Source of the DNA: an uncultured Thermoplasmatales archaeon
GTDB taxonomy: Archaea; Thermoplasmatota; E2; DHVEG-1
NCBI GenBank assembly: GCA_964646685.1
Contig: CAZYFW010000016.1
Span: 1 to 17,367, forward strand
Reading direction: 5' to 3'
Length of the DNA stretch: 17,367 bases
A program made the position numbers and the translations under genes. This document shows positions 3,034-17,367 of this stretch, piece after piece. Below the pieces are notes generated by a model. That model had not been told where the DNA came from, did not search any database, and saw nothing but the letters and a program-made list of their open reading frames with translations. The first letter of the stretch is position 1; each line of letters begins with the position of its first letter.

Positions 3034-3102
3034 ACCAAAACGTATAACAACTTATAACCTATATATGCTTCGAAAGAACCGGACTATTGGAGGATATTGT
3101 TA

Positions 3103-3441
3103 ATGATGCCTGGTCGTATGAATCCAAAACAAATGAGTCAAATGATGAAGAGATTTGGCATTAATGTAAAAGAGATAGAAAACGTCGAAAAAGTCATTAT
3201 TCAGACTGATACCAAAGAATATGTGTTTGAAAATGCGGAAGTTACGATCATGGATGCCCAAGGACAAAAAACCTATCAGATTTCTGGAAAGCCACGCATT
3301 GTTGAACGAGAGGAAGAGATTCCACAATCAGATATTGATTTGGTTGTAGAACAAACCGGTAAAACGGCCGCTGAGGCAAAAAAGGCATTAGAAGAGACAA
3401 AAGGAGATATTGCTCAGGCAATCCTAAAACTCAGTGAGTAA
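3103..3441 (+). CDS. nac: nascent polypeptide-associated complex protein (archaeal NAC alpha, NAC + UBA domains)
   Basis: MMPGRMNPKQMSQMMKRFGI start and the NAC beta-barrel region are typical of archaeal NAC. The C-terminal UBA-like segment is TGKTAAEAKKALEETKGDIAQAILKL. GGAGGA at 3089..3094 lies 8 nt before ATG 3103; the ORF track opens at TTG 3097. Confidence 0.9.
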   Translation: MMPGRMNPKQMSQMMKRFGINVKEIENVEKVIIQTDTKEYVFENAEVTIMDAQGQKTYQISGKPRIVEREEEIPQSDIDLVVEQTGKTAAEAKKALEETKGDIAQAILKLSE

Positions 3442-3699: not shown

Positions 3700-4917
3700 A
3701 TGAATATTCTTAGGCGAAGTATAAAAACATCCATATTTTCGTTAGTTGTGTTAATTGCAATTATGATGATGTTTTTTTTGGATTGTTCTTGTGTTGCAAC
3801 TTCTGATACAGATATTGCTTCAAATGAAAGCACTAGTCTAGATGATGTAGCAAAAAATTTGTCAACTTTTACTAATACAACCCAACGATTGTATCCTACA
3901 AATGATATTACAATAATCACTCCTGATGGGAGTACAATGACAGATCTTTCCACCACCTCTGTAAATGTTCAAGTGAACGATAAAACCAGAATAATATATT
4001 TTTCGAATACTACAGATGCTTTTTCAAATATCGACTTCCGTAAGTCTATAGATGGTTTAGACGACTTCAACTTATATATTGATTTTACTAATTATGATGC
4101 TGCGTCAGATCTCGATTTGATTATTGCAAACTATACCATCGATTGGGGAAATGGTGATATTTCTACTGGTAGGAATGTCCCTATATCAACGTTATCTTAT
4201 ACATACAAAAAAGAGGGAAAATATCCTGTGACTGTAAGATTGACTGATACTGATGGGATAACCTATGCCTTTCTAAATAATCAAAGTTTTAAGCTTACTA
4301 CCGGACAATTTGTAACACTTTGGGTGGATGAAAATAAGGAAACGGTCGCAATCAGTTCTGCTGCTGGAGCAGGCGGAGTTGCCATCCTTGGTTTTGCACT
4401 TACAGAAGCTGGAAAGTACAAACTATTGACTCTTCTCCCTTTGCTTATCCCGCTCTACACTCGTATTCAAAAGGAAGATGTACTTGACCAATTTGTCCGT
4501 GGGGAGATATATGGCTACATAAAAGCAAATCCAGGTGTACATTATAATCAGATTATTCGAGAACTTGATGTAAAAAACGGTACATTATCTTACCACCTCC
4601 ACATGTTGGAGAAGACGGGCATGGTCAAATCGAGGAAGGAAGGATTAAGATATCGAGTATTTTACCCAACTGGAATAAAGTTCCCGAAGGAAGAGAGATA
4701 TCGATTAACTGAACTCCAGATGAGTATTATCAAGATGATAAAGGAAAATGAAGGAATTAGTCAGAAAGAGATCGCTCGAGCTTTAAATGTGAAACATCAG
4801 ACAGTAAGCTATAATATGAAGGTGCTGCAACAAGCTGGTTTCATCCGTCTACGAAAAAAGGGGAGAACAACTAGTTGCTATATCATTGAAGATGGATATA
4901 GCGATCAGGCCGTTTAA
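3700..4917 (+). CDS. membrane-anchored transcriptional regulator: signal/anchor, extracytoplasmic PKD-like domain, TM helix, two cytoplasmic winged-helix HTH domains
   Basis: N-terminal hydrophobic anchor (IFSLVVLIAIMMMFFL). PKD signature (IDWGNGDIS...LSYTYKKEGKYPVTVRLTDTDG). Central TM (VAISSAAGAGGVAILGFAL). Two ArsR/MarR-like wHTH units (YGYIKANPGVHYNQIIRELDVKNGTLSYHLHMLEKTGMVKSRKEG; IIKMIKENEGISQKEIARALNVKHQTVSYNMKVLQQAGFIRLRKKG). Ends TAA then TGA. Confidence 0.75.
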   Translation: MNILRRSIKTSIFSLVVLIAIMMMFFLDCSCVATSDTDIASNESTSLDDVAKNLSTFTNTTQRLYPTNDITIITPDGSTMTDLSTTSVNVQVNDKTRIIYFSNTTDAFSNIDFRKSIDGLDDFNLYIDFTNYDAASDLDLIIANYTIDWGNGDISTGRNVPISTLSYTYKKEGKYPVTVRLTDTDGITYAFLNNQSFKLTTGQFVTLWVDENKETVAISSAAGAGGVAILGFALTEAGKYKLLTLLPLLIPLYTRIQKEDVLDQFVRGEIYGYIKANPGVHYNQIIRELDVKNGTLSYHLHMLEKTGMVKSRKEGLRYRVFYPTGIKFPKEERYRLTELQMSIIKMIKENEGISQKEIARALNVKHQTVSYNMKVLQQAGFIRLRKKGRTTSCYIIEDGYSDQAV

Positions 4918-5880: not shown

Positions 5881-7149
5881 ATGAATAAACTAAAAACACT
5901 AGCAATACTACTCGCACTGGTCATTGTTTTCACCGGTGTCTACGCAGGTGCCAACTATAGCGGACTAACAAACCATGACCTAATTAAGGCTCAATCGACC
6001 CATAAGTTAAGTAATTGTTCCATCGCAGGATCAATATGCGAACTGTCATTTGAGCTTTATAAAGGACTGTTAAAAAATGGTGATGAAAACATTTTCTTTT
6101 CGCCCTATAGTATTTTCATAGCTCTTGCAATGACTTATGAAGGTGCAAGTGGGCAAACAGCTGAAGAAATGATGGAAGTATTAAATATTCCACAAAATAA
6201 TGAAACTGTTTTAGAATCGGTAAAGACGCTTCATGGTTATCTAAATAAGAACGATAAATTTACAATAAGTACAGCTAATGCTCTTTGGATAAGAGATAAT
6301 CTTGATCTCTTAATTAATTATTCAAACATCATTCAGGAATATTACGGAGGTCATGCTTCCAAAATCGATGTTTCTAAACCTGAAGAAACCGCACAGATGA
6401 TAAATGACTGGGTAGAGGAACAAACAAAGGGAAAAATTACTGACTAAATTAAAAAAGAAGATATCATTGGTTTAACTGCATTAATTCTTACTAATGCCAT
6501 TTACTTCAAAGCCGACTGGAAAGTTCAATTTAATCCAGATGAGACAAAGGAACAAGAGTTTGAATTGGAAAGTGGTGAGAAAATCATGGTTCCTACAATG
6601 TGTCTTGAAGGTTCTGAAGAATTGTTTTATTACACGGAAAATGAGGAATTACAGATACTTGAATTGCCTTATGCAGGTGAAGAGCTTTCTATGCTTGTTT
6701 TGCTTCCGAAGCAAAAAAGTATTGCAGAAATTGTAGAATCATTATCATTTGGGTCTTTGTCAGAGTTGAAAGAATCAATGTATGAGACAAACATTAACAT
6801 TCGCCTTCCTAAGTTTAAACTTGAAACAGAATATGAATTAAACGAACCATTGAAGCGGATGGGCATGCCAAGTGCGTTTACCCGATATGATTTCACTGGT
6901 ATGTGTTATTGGTCTGGCAATCCAGATGCAATAGATCCCCTTAAAATTGATAAAGTGATTCATAAAGCGTTTATCGAGGTAAATGAGGAAGGAACAGAAG
7001 CTGCTGCTGCAACAGCTGTAATCATGGTTGACTATTGTATGCATAGTTCTTCGGAGTTTTTTGCTGATCATCCATTCCTGTTTATAATTCAGCATATAGA
7101 AACAGGTACCGTTCTTTTCATGGGAAGCGTCGGTAACCCCTTATCTTAA
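5881..7149 (+). pseudogene. serpin (serine protease inhibitor) interrupted by a single in-frame TAA at 6445..6447
   Basis: ORFs 5881..6447 and 6565..7149 are in the same frame. The 117 nt between them are open and encode conserved serpin sequence ([24 protein letters not shown]). Other serpin hallmarks: FFSPYSIFIALAMTYEGASGQT, hinge/[26 protein letters not shown]-terminal hydrophobic anchor MNKLKTLAILLALVIVFTGVYAGA. Read through, it would be about 421 aa. Confidence 0.85.
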
Positions 7150-8609: not shown

Positions 8610-8720
8610 ATTTACTATAGTATGGCGCAGTGGATTGTAATTTTGATATTTATTATTTTGGTTATCTCAAAATGAGAAATCGATTAATACGCTTTCGCCG
8701 CTATAAATTGGATAAATTAG

Positions 8721-8792
8721 TAGCCCCGAGTGGATTCGAACCACTGTCGCTAACTCTAAGGTCAACATGATTGTCCACTACAATACGGGGCT
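8721..8792 (-). tRNA. aberrant Gln-type tRNA-like gene (6-nt anticodon loop CUUAGA; possible pseudogene or non-canonical decoder)
   Basis: Reverse complement: AGCCCCG TA TTGT-AGTGGACAA-TCAT G TTGAC-CTTAGA-GTTAG CGAC AGTGG-TTCGAAT-CCACT CGGGGCT A. The acceptor stem and positions 8-9 are identical to tRNA-Gln(CUG). The T arm is perfect. The loop between the best 5-bp anticodon stem (8750..8754 / 8761..8765) has only 6 nt (8755..8760). Confidence 0.55.
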
Positions 8793-8847: not shown

Positions 8848-10536
8848 TTATTTCTTGTTTTGTTGCATCTGCTGAACTTTTGCCCAAGTGTCACGTAATA
8901 CTACAGTTCTGTTGATAATGAGATTCTTCTCAGTCTTATCTGGATCTATGCAGAAATATCCTTGTCGTTCGAACTGGAATCTATCAAATGGTTTTAATTT
9001 ACCAACAGTAGGTTCAACCTTGCATGATTTTAATATCCCGAGCGAATCAGGATTAAGAAAATCCTTAAAATCGGCATTTTTTTGCCCGGCAGGATTTTTT
9101 ACAGTAAATAATCTATCATAAAGTCTAATTTCTGCATCGATTGAATGAGCCGCTGAAACCCAATGAAGTGTTGATTTTACTTTCCGCCCATCAGCGGCAG
9201 TGCCTCCACTGGTTGCAGGATCAATTGTACATCTAAGCTCAACTACTTTGCCATTATTTTTAACTGCTTTTTGGCAGGTTACTAAATAAGCATACCTGAA
9301 TCTTACTTCTTGACCAGGTGTCAAACGATAGAATTTCTTTGGGGGATCCTCCATAAAATCCTCTTGTTCAATAAATAATACTTTTGAAAATGGAATTTTT
9401 CGAGTTCCAGCCTTTGGATCTTCAGGATTATTTATCGCCTCCATCTCTTCGACTTCATCTTCGGGATAATTTTCAATTACTACTCTAAGTGGATTAAGAA
9501 CGCCCATGAACCGTGGACAAGTTTTATTTAAATCATCTCTGACACAATGTTCAAGGAACTCAAAGTCAACCATGCTGTTTACTTTTGCAACACCAATTCG
9601 CTTGCAGAAATTTCTGATAGAATCAGGCGAGTAACCTCGTCTATGCATTCCACTGATAGTTGGTAATCTAGGATCATTCCATCCATTTACATATTTGCCT
9701 TCTACCAATTCTAAAAGCATACGTTTGCTCATTATTGTATATGTTAGATTCAGACGAGCGAATTCTATCTGTTGTGGATGATAGACCTCAATAGCATCAA
9801 GGAACCAATCATAGAGAGGGCGATGGTTCTCAAATTCAAGAGTACATATTGAATGAGTAATTCTTTCGATGGAGTCTTCCAGACCGTGTGCCCAGTCGTA
9901 CATGGGATAAATACACCATTTATCTCCGGTATTATGATGGGGGGCATGTAATACTCTATACAATACTGGATCACGCATATTGAGATTCGGATGGCTCATG
10001 TCAATCTTGGCCCGAAGTACCTTCCCACCGTCAACAAACTCACCTGCTTTCATCCGCTCAAAAAGATCGAGGTTTTCTTTCACCGAACGATCACGATAAG
10101 GGCTATTTTTGCCGGGTTTTGTTAGAGTGCCGCGTTGCTCGCTTATTTCTTTAGCACTTAAGTCATCGACATATGCTTTACCGGCTTTTATTAACTGAAC
10201 TGCATATTCGTACATCTGATCAAAATAATCTGAGGCAAAATAAAGCCGGTCTCCCCAGTCAAATCCGAGCCATTTTACATCTTCAATAATTGATTTGACA
10301 TATTCTTTCTCTTCTTTTGCAGGATTGGTATCGTCAAAACGAAGGTTACATAGGCCCTTGTATTCTTCAGCTATGCCAAAGTTGAGACATATGGACTTAG
10401 CATGACCGATATGTAAGTACCCATTTGGCTCGGGTGGAAATCTTGTGTGGACGCGACCATCATATTTATTTGTCTTCAAGTCCTCATCAATTATGTCTCG
10501 AATAAAATCCCTTTTTTCATCAATAGCTGAATCCAT
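8848..10536 (-). CDS. glnS: glutaminyl-tRNA synthetase, bacterial type
   Basis: Collinear by eye with E. coli GlnS: [36 protein letters not shown] (HIGH), [68 protein letters not shown] (KMSKS equivalent), LRDTWAKV C-terminus. 562 aa with no eukaryote-type N-terminal extension. Confidence 0.95.
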
Positions 10537-12123: not shown

Positions 12124-13374
12124 TTGGATCCTACTTTGATATTGATCGGTGGCAGTACTGTTGCTATAGCTTTCTATGTTGCATGGAGTATTGGTGCTAA
12201 TGATGTAGCAAATTCTATGGGTACCTCGGTAGGTAGCAAAGCCATCTCTATTAGACAAGCTATTTTGATTGCCGGTATTTTTGAATTCGCTGGAGCTGTA
12301 TTGATAGGCGTTCACGTTACAAAAACAATTCAAAATGGAATCGTGGATCCAGTGTTATTTTCAGCTGATCCATCTATTTACGTTTACGGGATGCTTGCTG
12401 CGTTACTCGCTGCTGCTGTTTGGATTTCGATTTCGACATATTTTGCACTACCAATATCAACATCCCAATCTATAGTTGGAGCATTAATTGGTTTCGGTGT
12501 TGTTGCAGCGGGCATTTCAGCAGTGAGCTGGGGAAAAATAATTCAGATAGGGGAAAGCTGGATTTTATCCCCTCTTGCTGGCGCAGCACTTGCATTTTTC
12601 ATTTTCTTAGTTATAAAAAAAGTTATCTTTGATACAAGCAAACCCTTTGAATCTACTAAAAAAGCAATTCCGTTTTTCACTTTTGCTCTTGTTTCTGTTA
12701 TTTTATTTTCTATTTTTAAAAGTCTTGAATGCACAGATTTTCCCACTATTTGTTTTTCAACAGCTTTGGAGATAACACTAGTCGTTAGTATTATTTCTGC
12801 TGTTCTTAGTCATGTGCTTGTAAATCGTTATAAACCTGGTAAGCTGGAGACTGATCAAGAAGTTTACCGTTCTATCGAGCATGTTTTTATTTATCTTCAG
12901 ATAATGACTGCTTGTTTTGTTGCCTTTGCCCATGGTTCGAATGATGTAGCAAACGCTATTGGTCCTTTAGCTGCTGTTATAAACATTCTCGAATCTGGTT
13001 CTATTGAATCAGTAATTGGAGTTCCTCTATGGTTGGTTGTTCTTGGCGGTGTGGGTATCGTTGTTGGTCTTGCAACATGGGGGTATAAAGTCATTGGTAC
13101 CATTGGTAAAAAAATCACAGAGATCACCCCAACAAGGGGTTTTTCTGCAGAGTTTAGTACGGCACTAGTTGTTTTAGTATGTTCTCGTCTTGGTTTGCCC
13201 GTATCTACATCGCAGGTACTCGTAGGCTCTGTAATTGGTATCGGGTTTGCAAAAGGTATCGTTGCTGTAGATTTAAAAATAATAAAGAGAATCATGGCAT
13301 GTTGGATAATAACTGTTCCAGTTTCTGCTGCTACATCAGCAATAATCTTTATTTGTTTAAGAGCGTTATTATAA
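12124..13374 (+). CDS. inorganic phosphate transporter, PiT family (copy A)
   Basis: Both PiT half-repeat signatures are present (WSIGANDVANSMGTSVGS; FAHGSNDVANAIGPLA), with many TM segments. The ORF track opens at TTG 12106. GGAGG at 12113..12117 lies 6 nt before TTG 12124, and from there the N-terminus (M)DPTLIL matches the copy B start MDPITFL. Confidence 0.9.
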   Translation: MDPTLILIGGSTVAIAFYVAWSIGANDVANSMGTSVGSKAISIRQAILIAGIFEFAGAVLIGVHVTKTIQNGIVDPVLFSADPSIYVYGMLAALLAAAVWISISTYFALPISTSQSIVGALIGFGVVAAGISAVSWGKIIQIGESWILSPLAGAALAFFIFLVIKKVIFDTSKPFESTKKAIPFFTFALVSVILFSIFKSLECTDFPTICFSTALEITLVVSIISAVLSHVLVNRYKPGKLETDQEVYRSIEHVFIYLQIMTACFVAFAHGSNDVANAIGPLAAVINILESGSIESVIGVPLWLVVLGGVGIVVGLATWGYKVIGTIGKKITEITPTRGFSAEFSTALVVLVCSRLGLPVSTSQVLVGSVIGIGFAKGIVAVDLKIIKRIMACWIITVPVSAATSAIIFICLRALL

Positions 13375-13392: not shown

Positions 13393-14091
13393 ATGGACAA
13401 AGAAAAAGATCATTTCAGAGCGCCTGTTGCTGATACATTCAGAAGAAAATCACCATTTGACCAATTACTTGAACACATGGGGAAAGTCAGAGAATGTATC
13501 GATATTTTAGGAAGCGGGTTGGTTGATTATTATAAAGGAAATTACAAAAATTTTTCAGATTTGGCTAAGAAAGTATCTGAAATTGAACATGAAGCAGATC
13601 TTATTAAAAGTAATCTTAGAAACCATCTTCCAAATTCACTTTTTATGCCTGTTGATAAGGGAAAATTTATGTGGGCTCTCAGAGAACAAGATGCAATTCT
13701 TGATCATGCAGAAAATCTTGCAACAATGCTTGATATGAGGCATACAAAAATTCCAAAAGAACTACAGAAAGTTTTCATTGAACATTGTAAACTAGTTATG
13801 AAGACAGTAAAGGCCATGGAGGATGCAGTTGAAAACATTAGAGATTTAGTTGAAACAAGTTTTGTAAAACGAGAACGAGAACAAACAAAGCAGTTTATCT
13901 ATAAAGTTCATGAGTTCGAATGGAAAGCAGATAAAGCGAAATATGAAGCGACTAAAGGAATCTATAAATTTGAAAAGAAGCTAGATCCAATGGACGTATA
14001 TCATCTCCTTAAGATTGCAGATTGGGTTGATGACATCGCAGATCATGCAGAAAATGTGGCCGATTGGCTTAGAGCCATGATTGCAAAATAG
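13393..14091 (+). CDS. DUF47 / PhoU-like Pit accessory protein (TIGR00153 family), copy 1
   Basis: Helical PhoU-related pattern (EIEHEADLIKSNLRNHL, FMPVDKGKFMWALREQDAILDHAEN, IADWVDDIADHAEN). The canonical position immediately 3' of a PiT gene is a well-known pairing. ATG 13393 is preferred over the ORF-track GTG 13381. Confidence 0.85.
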   Translation: MDKEKDHFRAPVADTFRRKSPFDQLLEHMGKVRECIDILGSGLVDYYKGNYKNFSDLAKKVSEIEHEADLIKSNLRNHLPNSLFMPVDKGKFMWALREQDAILDHAENLATMLDMRHTKIPKELQKVFIEHCKLVMKTVKAMEDAVENIRDLVETSFVKREREQTKQFIYKVHEFEWKADKAKYEATKGIYKFEKKLDPMDVYHLLKIADWVDDIADHAENVADWLRAMIAK

Positions 14092-14238
14092 TTATTATTT
14101 ATTATCCGTGCCAACTAAATGATTGATAACATTTTCTGATATGTCCGCAGAATATTCTCCTATTCTTCTTATACTCTCTACGACATAACCTAGTGAAATC
14201 ACAAATTCACCTTTTTGTTTAAAGGCAAGCTTATTTAT
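13400..14238 (+). repeat. copy 1 of a perfect direct repeat of at least 839 bp (offset 3129 bp)
   Basis: Compared by eye with 16529..17367, with no mismatch found. The ORF-track proteins are identical from EKDHFRAP to MIAK. The nested ORFs 13523..13738 and 16652..16867 are identical. The 147 nt after the stop codon are identical up to the window edge. Confidence 0.9.
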
Positions 14239-15120
14239 TTCTTTACATTTTATTTCTAGTTTTTGAACCGATTCTATTGTTTCATTTGCTAATTTCACAT
14301 CCTTTCTTAGAAACGATGTAATACTTTTGTTAAAAATATCCAGAGATAAATTGCTTGCAAATTCAAGTTTTTCAATTATTATGCCATCAAATTTTTTATC
14401 TGTTATATTTATTGCATTTTTTGCAATTCTTATTACATGGTCGCCTATACGTTCTATGATCCTACTTACTAGAAAGGATGTCGTTGCCAATTCAATCGTT
14501 ATTCCCATCTTCTCAGCAAAGCTTACGTTTTGTAAAATTATGTTATGTTGTCGTGCAACCAACCAATGAAGCCTATCTATTTCATTGTCTCTTGAAAGTA
14601 CGTCTTCTGCTAGCATTTTATCATTTCTTTGTATGGCGTTCATTATATCTTCATTCATGCCTTTAACGATGATATGCATTCTTTTAATCGTCCTGTCAAA
14701 TGGCATCTCTGTAGGATTTAGTATATCTTTAGTTATAATATGAGTATCAGTCTCTTCGACAATCTCTTGCCCTATTGTCGTTTTAGTGAACTTTCTAACA
14801 GTCATTTTAACTGCTGGCGACATTCTAGTTGCTGATTTCACCTTTATAGAATCATATCCAGATATATAGGCGCCAATCAAATGCCTTAATAGAAAATCCT
14901 GGTTAGTAATATTACTTGCATCGAATTCTTTTATTCTCTGCGTGGTTTCTCTGTCGATTTTTGGAGTTATTAAAAGTGTCCCATCTGATTGCATTAAAAG
15001 TCCAACCGGATCGTTTTTTTGAATTTTTAAAGATTTTATCCATTCTTTAGGCAATGTTACAATATATGACGACCCGCCAGTCATTTGTACGCGTCTTATT
15101 TCCATTTTTCCGCCGTTCAT
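14095..15120 (-). CDS. phoU: phosphate uptake regulator, archaeal type (N-terminal SpoVT/AbrB DNA-binding domain + tandem PhoU domains)
   Basis: AbrB-like swapped-hairpin segment IRRVQMTGGSSYIVTLPKEWIKSLKIQKNDPVGLLMQSDGTLLITP. PhoU repeats with DNEIDRLHWLVARQ, IERIGDHVIRIAKN and IRRIGEYSADISENV. Convergent with the DUF47 gene (3-nt gap). The start may be ATG 15120 or ATG 15105 (MEIRRV). Confidence 0.85.
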   Translation of the reverse strand: MNGGKMEIRRVQMTGGSSYIVTLPKEWIKSLKIQKNDPVGLLMQSDGTLLITPKIDRETTQRIKEFDASNITNQDFLLRHLIGAYISGYDSIKVKSATRMSPAVKMTVRKFTKTTIGQEIVEETDTHIITKDILNPTEMPFDRTIKRMHIIVKGMNEDIMNAIQRNDKMLAEDVLSRDNEIDRLHWLVARQHNIILQNVSFAEKMGITIELATTSFLVSRIIERIGDHVIRIAKNAINITDKKFDGIIIEKLEFASNLSLDIFNKSITSFLRKDVKLANETIESVQKLEIKCKEINKLAFKQKGEFVISLGYVVESIRRIGEYSADISENVINHLVGTDNK

Positions 15121-15262
15121 AACAAATAGAATACATCATATATTTATAAATTTTTATATGGTCATATATATTTCTATTTACGTAATATAGTAAAATATAG
15201 TATATGTAGATAAAATATATATTTAAATTAAATCTCACTATGTTTGGTGATGTTCCAATAAG
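15121..15262. promoter_or_regulatory. AT-rich divergent promoter region between phoU (-) and PiT copy B (+)
   Basis: 142 nt with multiple TATA-like boxes (TTTATAAATTTTTATAT, AAAATATATATTTAAAT). Also an 8-bp palindrome TTACGTAA (15178..15185) and ATATAGTA repeated at a 10-bp period (15185..15192, 15195..15202). Assignment of individual elements is not possible from sequence alone. Confidence 0.4.
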
Positions 15263-16510
15263 ATGGATCCGATTACTTTTCTTTTAATAGCAGGTGGAGC
15301 AAGTGCTATCGCCTTTTACATGGCATGGAGCATTGGTGCAAATGATGTTGCAAACTCAATGGCAACGGCAGTCGGTGCAAAGGCAATTACTTTTAAACAA
15401 GCTGTAATAATAGCAGGAATTCTAAATCTCGTTGGTGCCGTTTTTGTTGGCGGCCATGTAACGGATACTGTTAGAAAAGGAATTGTAAGCACTACAGGTA
15501 TTGATAATCATGCTTTATTACTAGGATTTGTTGCTAGTCTTCTCGCAGCTGCAATTTGGGTCACTCTTGCAACATGGAAGGAAATGCCAGTGTCTACTAC
15601 TCATTCGATAATTGGAGCTTTAATGGGCTTTGGACTTATTGCTGGTGGAACATCCACTGTCATATGGAGTAAGGTTGGTTCTGTAGTTGCTAGCTGGCTT
15701 CTTTCCCCATTGATAGGTTGCATTCTTGCATTTTTTGTTTTCAAAATTATTGTAAAAACTATATTTTCTAAAGATAACCCTGTTGCTGCCGCTAAGATTG
15801 TTGGGCCAATGATTTTTGGTTTTACAGCATTTTTAATTGCATCATCGCTATTTTTAAAAACTCCGTTGAGTGAAAACTACGGTTTTACAGATTCTGACGG
15901 TCTTATTATTGCGACGTTTGTAGCTATAATTGTTGCATTAATTGGGATGTTTTTACTGAGAAAAGTAGAAGCAAAATCTGATGAAGATAATGCTGCATAT
16001 GGTGCTGTTGAAGGAATTTTTAGGAGACTACAGATTGGAACGTCGTGTTATGTTGCATTTGCGCATGGGGCAAATGATGTAGCAAATGCAATCGGCCCTG
16101 TTGCCTCAATAATCCCACTTGCACAAGGTATCGGGCTAGGTTCAGAAGTTGAAGTTCCTGTCTGGCTTTTAGCACTTGGTGGCGTTGGTATAGCTGTTGG
16201 ATGCATGACTTGGGGCCGTCGCGTTATGCGGACAGTTGGCAGCCGTATAACAAATCTCACAAACACAAGGGGTTTTAGCGTTGATTTCGGAGCTGCGACA
16301 ACTGTTCTTATTGCTTCAAAGCTTGGCATGCCTATATCTACTTCGCACACTGTAGTTGGTGCAGTAATCGGTGTAGGTCTTGCAAGAGGTCTTGAAGCTG
16401 TTAATTTAAACGTCATCAAGAAAATTATCGTTTCTTGGTTGCTGACTCTACCTGTTGCAGCAGGAACGAGTATAACAATATTTTTAATACTTAGAGGGTT
16501 ATTTGGATAA
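15263..16510 (+). CDS. inorganic phosphate transporter, PiT family (copy B)
   Basis: WSIGANDVANSMATAVGA and FAHGANDVANAIGPVA signatures. 415 aa, ends in TAA. Clearly a diverged paralogue of copy A, with many amino-acid and synonymous differences. Confidence 0.9.
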   Translation: MDPITFLLIAGGASAIAFYMAWSIGANDVANSMATAVGAKAITFKQAVIIAGILNLVGAVFVGGHVTDTVRKGIVSTTGIDNHALLLGFVASLLAAAIWVTLATWKEMPVSTTHSIIGALMGFGLIAGGTSTVIWSKVGSVVASWLLSPLIGCILAFFVFKIIVKTIFSKDNPVAAAKIVGPMIFGFTAFLIASSLFLKTPLSENYGFTDSDGLIIATFVAIIVALIGMFLLRKVEAKSDEDNAAYGAVEGIFRRLQIGTSCYVAFAHGANDVANAIGPVASIIPLAQGIGLGSEVEVPVWLLALGGVGIAVGCMTWGRRVMRTVGSRITNLTNTRGFSVDFGAATTVLIASKLGMPISTSHTVVGAVIGVGLARGLEAVNLNVIKKIIVSWLLTLPVAAGTSITIFLILRGLFG

Positions 16511-16524
16511 GGAGGTAAATGTTT

Positions 16525-17220
16525 ATGGAAGAAAAAGATCATTTCAGAGCGCCTGTTGCTGATACATTCAGAAGAAAATCACCATTTGACCAATTACTTG
16601 AACACATGGGGAAAGTCAGAGAATGTATCGATATTTTAGGAAGCGGGTTGGTTGATTATTATAAAGGAAATTACAAAAATTTTTCAGATTTGGCTAAGAA
16701 AGTATCTGAAATTGAACATGAAGCAGATCTTATTAAAAGTAATCTTAGAAACCATCTTCCAAATTCACTTTTTATGCCTGTTGATAAGGGAAAATTTATG
16801 TGGGCTCTCAGAGAACAAGATGCAATTCTTGATCATGCAGAAAATCTTGCAACAATGCTTGATATGAGGCATACAAAAATTCCAAAAGAACTACAGAAAG
16901 TTTTCATTGAACATTGTAAACTAGTTATGAAGACAGTAAAGGCCATGGAGGATGCAGTTGAAAACATTAGAGATTTAGTTGAAACAAGTTTTGTAAAACG
17001 AGAACGAGAACAAACAAAGCAGTTTATCTATAAAGTTCATGAGTTCGAATGGAAAGCAGATAAAGCGAAATATGAAGCGACTAAAGGAATCTATAAATTT
17101 GAAAAGAAGCTAGATCCAATGGACGTATATCATCTCCTTAAGATTGCAGATTGGGTTGATGACATCGCAGATCATGCAGAAAATGTGGCCGATTGGCTTA
17201 GAGCCATGATTGCAAAATAG
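16525..17220 (+). CDS. DUF47 / PhoU-like Pit accessory protein, copy 2 (identical to copy 1 after the first few codons)
   Basis: Same protein as 13393..14091 from EKDHF onward. GGAGGT at 16511..16516 lies 8 nt before ATG 16525; the ORF track opens at ATG 16519, only 2 nt after the SD. Confidence 0.85.
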   Translation: MEEKDHFRAPVADTFRRKSPFDQLLEHMGKVRECIDILGSGLVDYYKGNYKNFSDLAKKVSEIEHEADLIKSNLRNHLPNSLFMPVDKGKFMWALREQDAILDHAENLATMLDMRHTKIPKELQKVFIEHCKLVMKTVKAMEDAVENIRDLVETSFVKREREQTKQFIYKVHEFEWKADKAKYEATKGIYKFEKKLDPMDVYHLLKIADWVDDIADHAENVADWLRAMIAK

Positions 17221-17367
17221 TTATTATTTATTATCCGTGCCAACTAAATGATTGATAACATTTTCTGATATGTCCGCAGAATATTCTCCTATTCTTCTTA
17301 TACTCTCTACGACATAACCTAGTGAAATCACAAATTCACCTTTTTGTTTAAAGGCAAGCTTATTTAT
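16529..17367 (+). repeat. copy 2 of the perfect direct repeat (truncated by the window end)
   Basis: See copy 1. Identity runs to the last base of the window, so the true length is unknown. Confidence 0.9.
17224..17367 (-). CDS. phoU: 3' end (last 47 codons + stop) of a second AbrB-PhoU-type regulator gene, partial at window edge
   Basis: 17224..17367 is base-for-base identical to 14095..14238, the 3' end of the phoU-like gene. It would encode ...FKQKGEFVISLGYVVESIRRIGEYSADISENVINHLVGTDNK. Confidence 0.7.
   Translation of the reverse strand: MNKLAFKQKGEFVISLGYVVESIRRIGEYSADISENVINHLVGTDNK

Follow-up and report, generated by a model that had tools for sequence, protein, structure and literature searches.

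The locus considered here raises the question of how two old and strongly diverged phosphate transporter genes came to be followed by exactly the same DNA. The stretch analysed (the window, hereafter W) comprises 17,367 nucleotides (nt) from an uncultured Thermoplasmatales archaeon, contig CAZYFW010000016.1 of the assembly GCA_964646685.1; it is the entire deposited NCBI contig (17,368 nt), and the edge of the window is therefore the end of the contig. Its right-hand part carries two genes for PiT, a phosphate permease, named PiT1 (12124-13374, plus strand) and PiT2 (15263-16510, plus strand), each followed by a gene of the DUF47 (PhoU_div) family, DUF47a (13393-14091, plus strand) and DUF47b (16525-17220, plus strand), respectively. 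Between DUF47a and PiT2 lies an AbrB/SpoVT–PhoU regulator gene in the opposite orientation (14095-15120, minus strand). Related loci used for comparison are designated by L-numbers. The answer that we favour, with modest confidence, is a real gene conversion or segmental replacement in vivo, in which DUF47–PhoU DNA of the second module was copied into the first.

A computed self-comparison of W at an offset of 3129 nt showed that positions 13400-14238 and 16529-17367 are identical over 839 nt with 0 mismatches, as the first-pass annotation had read by eye. A repeat of this length and exactness cannot have arisen by chance. It begins inside the DUF47 gene, at the second base of codon 3 in copy 1 (ATG at 13393) and in codon 4 or 2 in copy 2, depending on whether the ATG at 16519 or that at 16525 is taken as the start, and it continues through the remainder of DUF47 and a gap of 3 nt into the convergent AbrB–PhoU gene, of which it takes in the final 48 codons. 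Since the repeat starts inside DUF47, the two copies retain distinct start codons and ribosome-binding regions. The last base of copy 2 coincides with the last base of the window, and because the window is the whole contig, the repeat stops at the contig end and not at an arbitrary edge. The boundary on the left was found to be as sharp as had been claimed: just upstream of the repeat the identity is at background (about 27% at offset 3129), and across the PiT genes it is at most 41% at every offset from 3120 to 3144. An identical tract with diverged flanks within one genome (839 nt at 100%, flanks at about 27%, PiT proteins at 46%) is what gene conversion is expected to leave. Of the two PiT–DUF47–PhoU modules proposed in the first-pass annotation, the PiT–DUF47 pairs are both present, but a complete second module is not seen, as the second PhoU-type gene (17224-17367, minus strand) is cut by the contig end and just the 48 codons of its 3' end are visible, identical to 14095-14238.

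The PiT1 and PiT2 proteins are 46.4% identical at the amino acid (aa) level and fall into separate deep clades, PiT1 grouping with the first PiT of L044 and with L059 and not with the PiT2 clade. The orthologs of PiT1 in metagenomes are 86-96% identical to it in aa. PiT2, whose lineage is common in the clade, shows 84-88% aa identity to Thermoplasmatota genomes in GTDB, its closest relatives there (up to 88%) being uncultured Thermoplasmatota metagenome-assembled genomes (MAGs), 90.6% to L058 and 93% to L141, which comes from a sibling population. Two PiT proteins of only 46% identity, from separate deep clades, rule out a recent tandem duplication of the whole module.

The order PiT1–DUF47–PhoU(-)–PiT2–DUF47 was found in L044, L072, L109, L123, L127 and L141 (together with L142 and L147), and the tandem layout occurs in at least six related Thermoplasmatota populations. 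In the sibling population (JGI sample Ga0315547), which is about 90-93% identical to W in nt sequence, the same order is obtained by chaining three contigs: L142 carries GlnRS…PiT1 and the 5' part of DUF47, L141 the 3' part of DUF47, PhoU, PiT2 and the 5' part of the next DUF47, and L147 the 3' part of that DUF47 and an ARMT1-like gene. On the left-hand side, the synteny GlnRS–CinA–metallophosphoesterase (MPE)–PiT is kept in Thermoplasmatota relatives, and the PiT1–DUF47 junction is kept in L059, L070, L072 and L142. As the tandem order recurs in relatives, the two-copy layout is not an invention of the assembler, and the order MPE–PiT1–DUF47–AbrB-PhoU(-)–PiT2–DUF47 is genuine. The depth of the PiT paralogs and the retention of this order thus bear out the view of the first-pass annotation that these are old paralogous loci, for which it had named synteny in related genomes as a check.

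Other relatives have permuted or reduced layouts, namely MPE–PiT–DUF47–PhoU(-)–pstSCAB, MPE–PhoU(-)–PiT–DUF47 and MPE–PiT–PiT–DUF47–PhoU. In type-A relatives (L064) the ARMT1-like gene is located at the distal end of the pst operon. It directly follows DUF47 in L070 (3207-3569), L147 (431-1303) and L073 (706-1578), which implies that the PhoU–pstSCAB–phoU block has been deleted in these populations.

The comparison with the closest relatives revealed a second anomaly, which lies in the AbrB–PhoU gene between the two modules. When W was compared in 100-nt bins with L072, L141 and L142, its closest siblings (about 90-95% nt identity), most bins across GlnRS…PiT1–DUF47 and across PiT2–DUF47 showed 84-97% (median about 91%). 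The bins of 14100-15099 fell to 56-73% and those of 15100-15199 to 52-58%; from about 15200 the identity was 91% again. About 70 PhoU genes with known neighbours were compared. The nearest homologs of the W PhoU (72-93% aa) adjoin pstS in all 20 cases in which the right-hand neighbour is known, and the PhoU genes upstream of PiT2 in relatives are just 56-65% identical to it (15 of 15). We named the lineage beside pstS U_A and the lineage beside PiT2 U_B, the two being distinguished by their context only. The W PhoU and the adjoining left part of the spacer (14092-15202) belong to a lineage other than that found at this position in all relatives, and the phylogenetic discordance expected after gene conversion is thus present, the W PhoU grouping with the pstS-linked U_A and not with the U_B genes upstream of PiT2. 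A relative of about 88% nt identity, L058, contains PiT2–DUF47–U_A (full length)–spacer as a single colinear piece, which shows that PiT2–DUF47–U_A is a native linkage.

The divergent spacer between PhoU(-) and PiT2(+) (15121-15262), when aligned with those of 11-12 relatives, proved to be a hybrid, of U_A type on the left and of sibling type on the right. The lineage switch lies within a conserved AT-rich block: W matches the sibling L141 exactly over 23 nt at 15203-15225, and L058, which is of U_A type, matches the W spacer up to 15220. What is new at this locus is this PhoU of the "wrong", pstS-associated lineage between the modules, with the switch in a 23-nt promoter block. The AT-rich block extends over 15150-15235 (core about 15186-15230; …ATATAGTATATGTAGATAAAATATATATTTAAAT…), contains repeated TATAT(A/G) motifs and is common to the PhoU–pstS and PhoU–PiT2 spacers of more than 10 relatives. 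This block is a candidate for an operator or a TATA region and, apparently, the point at which recombination switched.

The spacer also bears on whether the two copies were near-identical from the outset. Unequal crossing-over or cassette exchange between alleles of the form MPE–[PiT]–DUF47–U_A–pstS would produce MPE–PiT1–DUF47–U_A–PiT2–DUF47–U_A–pstS by real duplication instead of conversion. Suitable alleles do exist, for the same slot is occupied by a PiT1-type gene in L103 (MPE–PiT1–DUF47–PhoU(75%)–pstS) and by a PiT2-type gene in L102, L095 and L107 (MPE–PiT2–DUF47–PhoU–pstS), and PiT–DUF47 pairs occur in many different contexts. Against such an origin, the PiT2-proximal spacer of W (from about 15203) and PiT2 itself are 91-97% identical to the sibling, whose tandem contains U_B, with exact runs in the spacer at 15203-15225, 15231-15250 and 15253-15269; that the PiT2 side is sibling-like suggests that the PhoU–PiT2 junction was inherited and not newly formed. 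Moreover, module 1 carries U_B in distant relatives as well. We therefore consider duplication by crossing-over unlikely. Apart from this question, PiT1–DUF47 pairs were also seen in unrelated contexts in L069 and L071, and in its behaviour PiT resembles a cassette that can be exchanged while the flanks are conserved.

How recent the identity is can be judged from the DUF47 genes of the relatives. Within one genome, DUF47a and DUF47b are 100% identical in W, 90-92% in nt in the sibling, about 76.6% in nt in Hel238.bin54, where the two DUF47 loci lie on separate contigs, and 75% in nt (77% in aa) in L044, whose two PiT proteins are 48% identical. In the sibling Ga0315547 the two copies differ at about 8-10% of sites, with about 14 differences within the first 100 nt, and at their 5' ends a difference is met every 5-10 nt. 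The copies of close relatives are thus less alike than the two copies of W, as a recent, lineage-specific event in W would have it. Pairwise nt identity of DUF47 is 87-89% among W, the PiT1-linked gene of L070 and the PiT2-linked gene of L058, and among the closest sequences DUF47 shows no split into PiT1-linked and PiT2-linked forms. At the sites which tell the sibling DUF47a from DUF47b, W, L070, L072, L058 and L073 are all mosaics, and the direction of conversion is not readable from these sites. In addition, identical stretches of 127 nt inside DUF47 stand at both contig ends in L127 (1-127 = 3155-3281) and L141 (1-127 = 3108-3234), and the first 127 nt of L123 match its own internal DUF47 3' end (1-127 = 3098-3224). 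These overlaps are signatures of loops in a graph with k=127, showing that the copies in these populations share at least 127 identical nt; hence assembly graphs of other populations also become tangled at this tandem locus. Because the copies in the sibling and other relatives are 75-92% identical and such loops occur in three assemblies, the homogenisation of DUF47 looks recurrent in the clade, and the earlier description of the modules as "otherwise diverged" does not hold for the DUF47 genes.

Mosaic sites of this kind might also point to a chimera of co-occurring strains, one with PiT1–DUF47–U_A… and another with …PiT2–DUF47–U_A, joined in the assembly through identical sequence. Several close populations do co-occur in the sample series Ga0315535, Ga0315547 and Ga0315555, and it is among those populations that the informative sites of DUF47 are mosaic. 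Some genome must nevertheless still hold U_A–spacer–PiT2, so that U_A or its 3' end would be duplicated there in any case, and W keeps an even level of identity to the sibling (about 90-93%) to the left and right of the segment, where no further breakpoint is seen. We regard such a chimera as very improbable.

Under the conversion reading that we favour, the genome would carry two tandem modules, MPE–PiT1–DUF47a–PhoU(-)<spacer>PiT2–DUF47b–PhoU'(-)…, and a recent non-reciprocal recombination would have copied DUF47b and the U_A-type AbrB–PhoU gene, native behind PiT2, over the segment behind PiT1. The region of W from 13400 to about 15203 would then be a copy of DUF47b–U_A–left spacer laid over an ancestral DUF47a–U_B–left spacer, and the donor would be module 2 and the recipient module 1. 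On the left the tract would begin with the first homologous base of the two modules, in DUF47 codon 3; the right end would lie either at 14238, 144 nt inside PhoU, or in the 23-nt promoter block at 15203-15225. The tract would accordingly measure between 839 nt and about 1.8 kb. That the contig ends right after the second pass through the repeat suggests that the copies diverge substantially directly behind 14238/17367, which gives 839 nt; the reach of the foreign segment to 15203-15225 gives, by comparative logic, about 1.8 kb, in which case another complete U_A would lie beside pstS.

The first-pass annotation had already suggested a recent conversion or segmental replacement. This stands as the best explanation, given that the DUF47 copies of the sibling are 90-92% identical, that both flanks enter the identical tract and that an independent contig matches copy 2 at 100%; the event was probably larger or more complex than the 839-nt identity, because the whole W PhoU and the left spacer belong to another lineage than in relatives. 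The independent contig is L057 (JGI sample 3300031699, Ga0315535), which is 100% identical to 16330-17354, spans the junction PiT2–DUF47b–PhoU 3' end and holds the same fragment of the second PhoU (42 codons). The exact DUF47b product is likewise present on L057, and the exact DUF47a product (232 aa) is on record from the W contig only.

The chief rival to conversion is that the identity was produced in the assembly graph, which we think possible but doubtful. The true layout would then be PiT1–DUF47a–U_B(-)–PiT2–DUF47b–U_A(-)–pstS; similar or partly identical DUF47 genes would have been collapsed, their edges walked twice and the U_A exit taken after DUF47a, so that the perfect identity and the U_A of module 1 would exist wholly or partly in silico. 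A number of observations weigh on this side and against a conversion in the living cell. A collapsed edge that is walked twice should leave a contig that breaks off within the repeat or where it ends, as this one does, and the succession entry–repeat–loop–repeat–stop is the output of path extension for a collapsed repeat. Sibling assemblies break or loop exactly within DUF47. The identity begins exactly at the first homologous base, which is also the outcome of graph collapse, and if the copies did differ at a few sites, bubble-popping could have removed those differences. The sibling U_B PhoU cluster (P0248), with 11 near-identical variants, is for the most part confined to orphan contigs, about 1.1-1.3 kb long (JGI, Logan, ENA), which fits a segment with repeats at both ends, namely DUF47 and the promoter block. 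The adjacency of U_A and PiT2 is seen in W alone among about 150 related loci, and no independent contig of the same population joins PiT1–DUF47–U_A or U_A–spacer–PiT2. Finally, L070, a relative of about 90% nt identity, has ARMT1-like(-) and not PhoU after PiT1–DUF47.

Graph collapse nevertheless demands several further coincidences. It requires DUF47a and DUF47b to be the same from the first homologous base, where the sibling copies differ every 5-10 nt. As both PiT-specific flanks run straight into the identical DUF47, the identity at the 5' edge must be in the reads. That the identity as a whole is a property of the DNA, and not of the graph alone, is an inference. A second chimeric join is needed in the conserved 18-23 nt block, which is below the usual final k; given how de Bruijn assemblers operate, a join in silico at the 23-nt block would call for a k of about 23 or less and seems unlikely with final graphs of k>=55. 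The terminal repeat of 839 nt is unequal to an assembler k, such as the 127-nt overlaps of the JGI loop contigs, and the junction of copy 2 is confirmed independently by L057. No U_B-type protein of at least 90% identity was found from an NCBI source, the W population being barely represented in the collections. A U_B gene with a U_A-like 3' end would put the repeat fork at 14238, but the 11 members of the sibling U_B cluster all have the U_B C-terminus and none a U_A-like one, from which nothing follows for W.

The end of the repeat was also searched directly. A fork at 14238 through k-mers common to U_A and the sibling U_B was rejected as an explanation, since there are no exact runs of at least 14 nt near this position. 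The last 41 nt of the repeat, used as an exact or wobble-tolerant pattern, gave 0 matches in the JGI metagenomes. Exact look-ups of W proteins, meant to prolong the contig, led only to this contig and to three short contigs of other origin, and the last of them (P0005) gave no match.

The mechanism favoured here is an ordinary one, gene conversion among tandem paralogs, and is local and not a new kind of system. The likeness is to the general phenomenon as it is known in prokaryotes, taken from established knowledge and not from a specific published case: the gene conversion and concerted evolution of tandem paralogs likewise make the copies more alike than the flanking genes, with sharp boundaries at the limit of homology, mosaic sites and recurrence in related lineages. 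Unlike the general case, only accessory and regulator genes are homogenised at this locus while the transporters remain 46% identical, and the tract extends over the boundary between two convergent genes and may have replaced a PhoU of 56-73% identity by way of one long and one very short arm. Loop traversal of collapsed repeats in de Bruijn metagenome assemblies shares with W an internal sequence repeated at the contig terminus, as in the k=127 overlaps of L127 and L141 in the same gene; it differs in that the W repeat measures 839 nt and not k, and in that both entry junctions have distinct flanks, one of them confirmed independently. It may be, though we offer this only tentatively, that DUF47 and sometimes the adjacent AbrB–PhoU gene are repeatedly homogenised between PiT modules and move between pstS-linked and PiT-linked positions through the short promoter block, which would give both transporters one shared DUF47/PhoU species and let regulators be swapped by conversion bounded by micro-homology.

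The functional consequences depend on what these genes encode. PiT1 (416 aa, TTG start) and PiT2 (415 aa) match PHO4 (PF01384) in Pfam over its full length (profile positions 1-350 of 350), with scores of 393 and 385 bits, the gathering cut-off being 33.7 (E=1.5e-117 for PiT1 and 2.9e-115 for PiT2). DUF47a (232 aa) is a full-length match to DUF47/PhoU_div (PF01865; 149 bits against 24.4, E=1.7e-43), and DUF47b is of 231 aa from the ATG at 16525. PiT and DUF47 are adjacent in all 50 related loci in which sequence downstream of PiT is available. The AbrB–PhoU protein, with a MazE_antitoxin/AbrB domain (PF04014, 43.6 bits) and two PhoU stretches (PF01895, 86.8 bits), measures 341 aa when read from the ATG at 15120; the source record starts it at the ATG at 15105 (336 aa).

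In Staphylococcus aureus pitA–phoU2/pitR, a PiT (PHO4) gene adjoins a DUF47/PhoU_div gene in one operon (PMC7326077), and this adjacency is the feature common to both systems; by analogy, the DUF47 proteins of W may be PitR/PhoU2-type partners of the kind found in pit operons (PMC7326077). Here PiT precedes DUF47, two modules stand in tandem in an archaeon, and a convergent AbrB–PhoU gene is added, all of this being known from sequence. The Thermococcus kodakarensis protein TK2245, a SpoVT/AbrB–PhoU transcription regulator, is listed as chromatin-associated (PMC7325993), and archaeal regulators of this type have the same architecture of an N-terminal AbrB/MazE domain and two PhoU domains. The AbrB–PhoU gene of W would thus, following the annotation of TK2245 (PMC7325993), encode a putative DNA-binding regulator, and it is transcribed divergently from the phosphate transporter operon. 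The literature search retrieved no experimental link of AbrB–PhoU to phosphate regulation in this clade.

After the proposed event, both PiT paralogs would have one and the same DUF47 accessory protein as partner, and PiT2 would share its promoter region with the divergently transcribed U_A-type regulator gene. If the conversion is real, W provides a clean, datable case in an uncultured archaeon, in which the accessory and regulatory genes of phosphate modules were homogenised beside transporters of 46% identity and the AbrB–PhoU regulator at the PiT2 promoter was rewired; it would then be informative on the pairing of PitR-like DUF47 proteins with PiT and, for Thermoplasmatota, on how long recombination tracts are and how much homology they require. 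An artefact, on the other hand, would be a useful warning that about 1 kb of sequence can be put in the wrong place where a MAG contig ends in an internal repeat.

Three further features were noted to the left of the PiT locus. In the segment 8454-10646 a full class-I GlnRS is encoded (8848-10536, minus strand), flanked by tRNA-Gln(CTG), tRNA-Gln(TTG), tRNA-Glu(TTC) and a gene reported by ARAGORN as "tRNA-???" (8720-8792). GlnRS is unusual in an archaeon, most archaea being without it; its synteny is kept in relatives, with 75-90% aa identity. A serpin gene at 5881-7149 (plus strand) is interrupted by a single in-frame TAA at 6445-6447 (…GKITD*IKKED…), the frame being otherwise intact over 423 codons, and it could be a pseudogene or reflect a sequencing error or a polymorphism. 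The gene at 3700-4917 (plus strand) encodes a 405-aa protein with an N-terminal signal or transmembrane segment, a PKD-like domain, a further transmembrane region and two C-terminal winged-helix domains (HTH_20/MarR-like, HVO_0163-type), which looks like a membrane-anchored putative transcription regulator.

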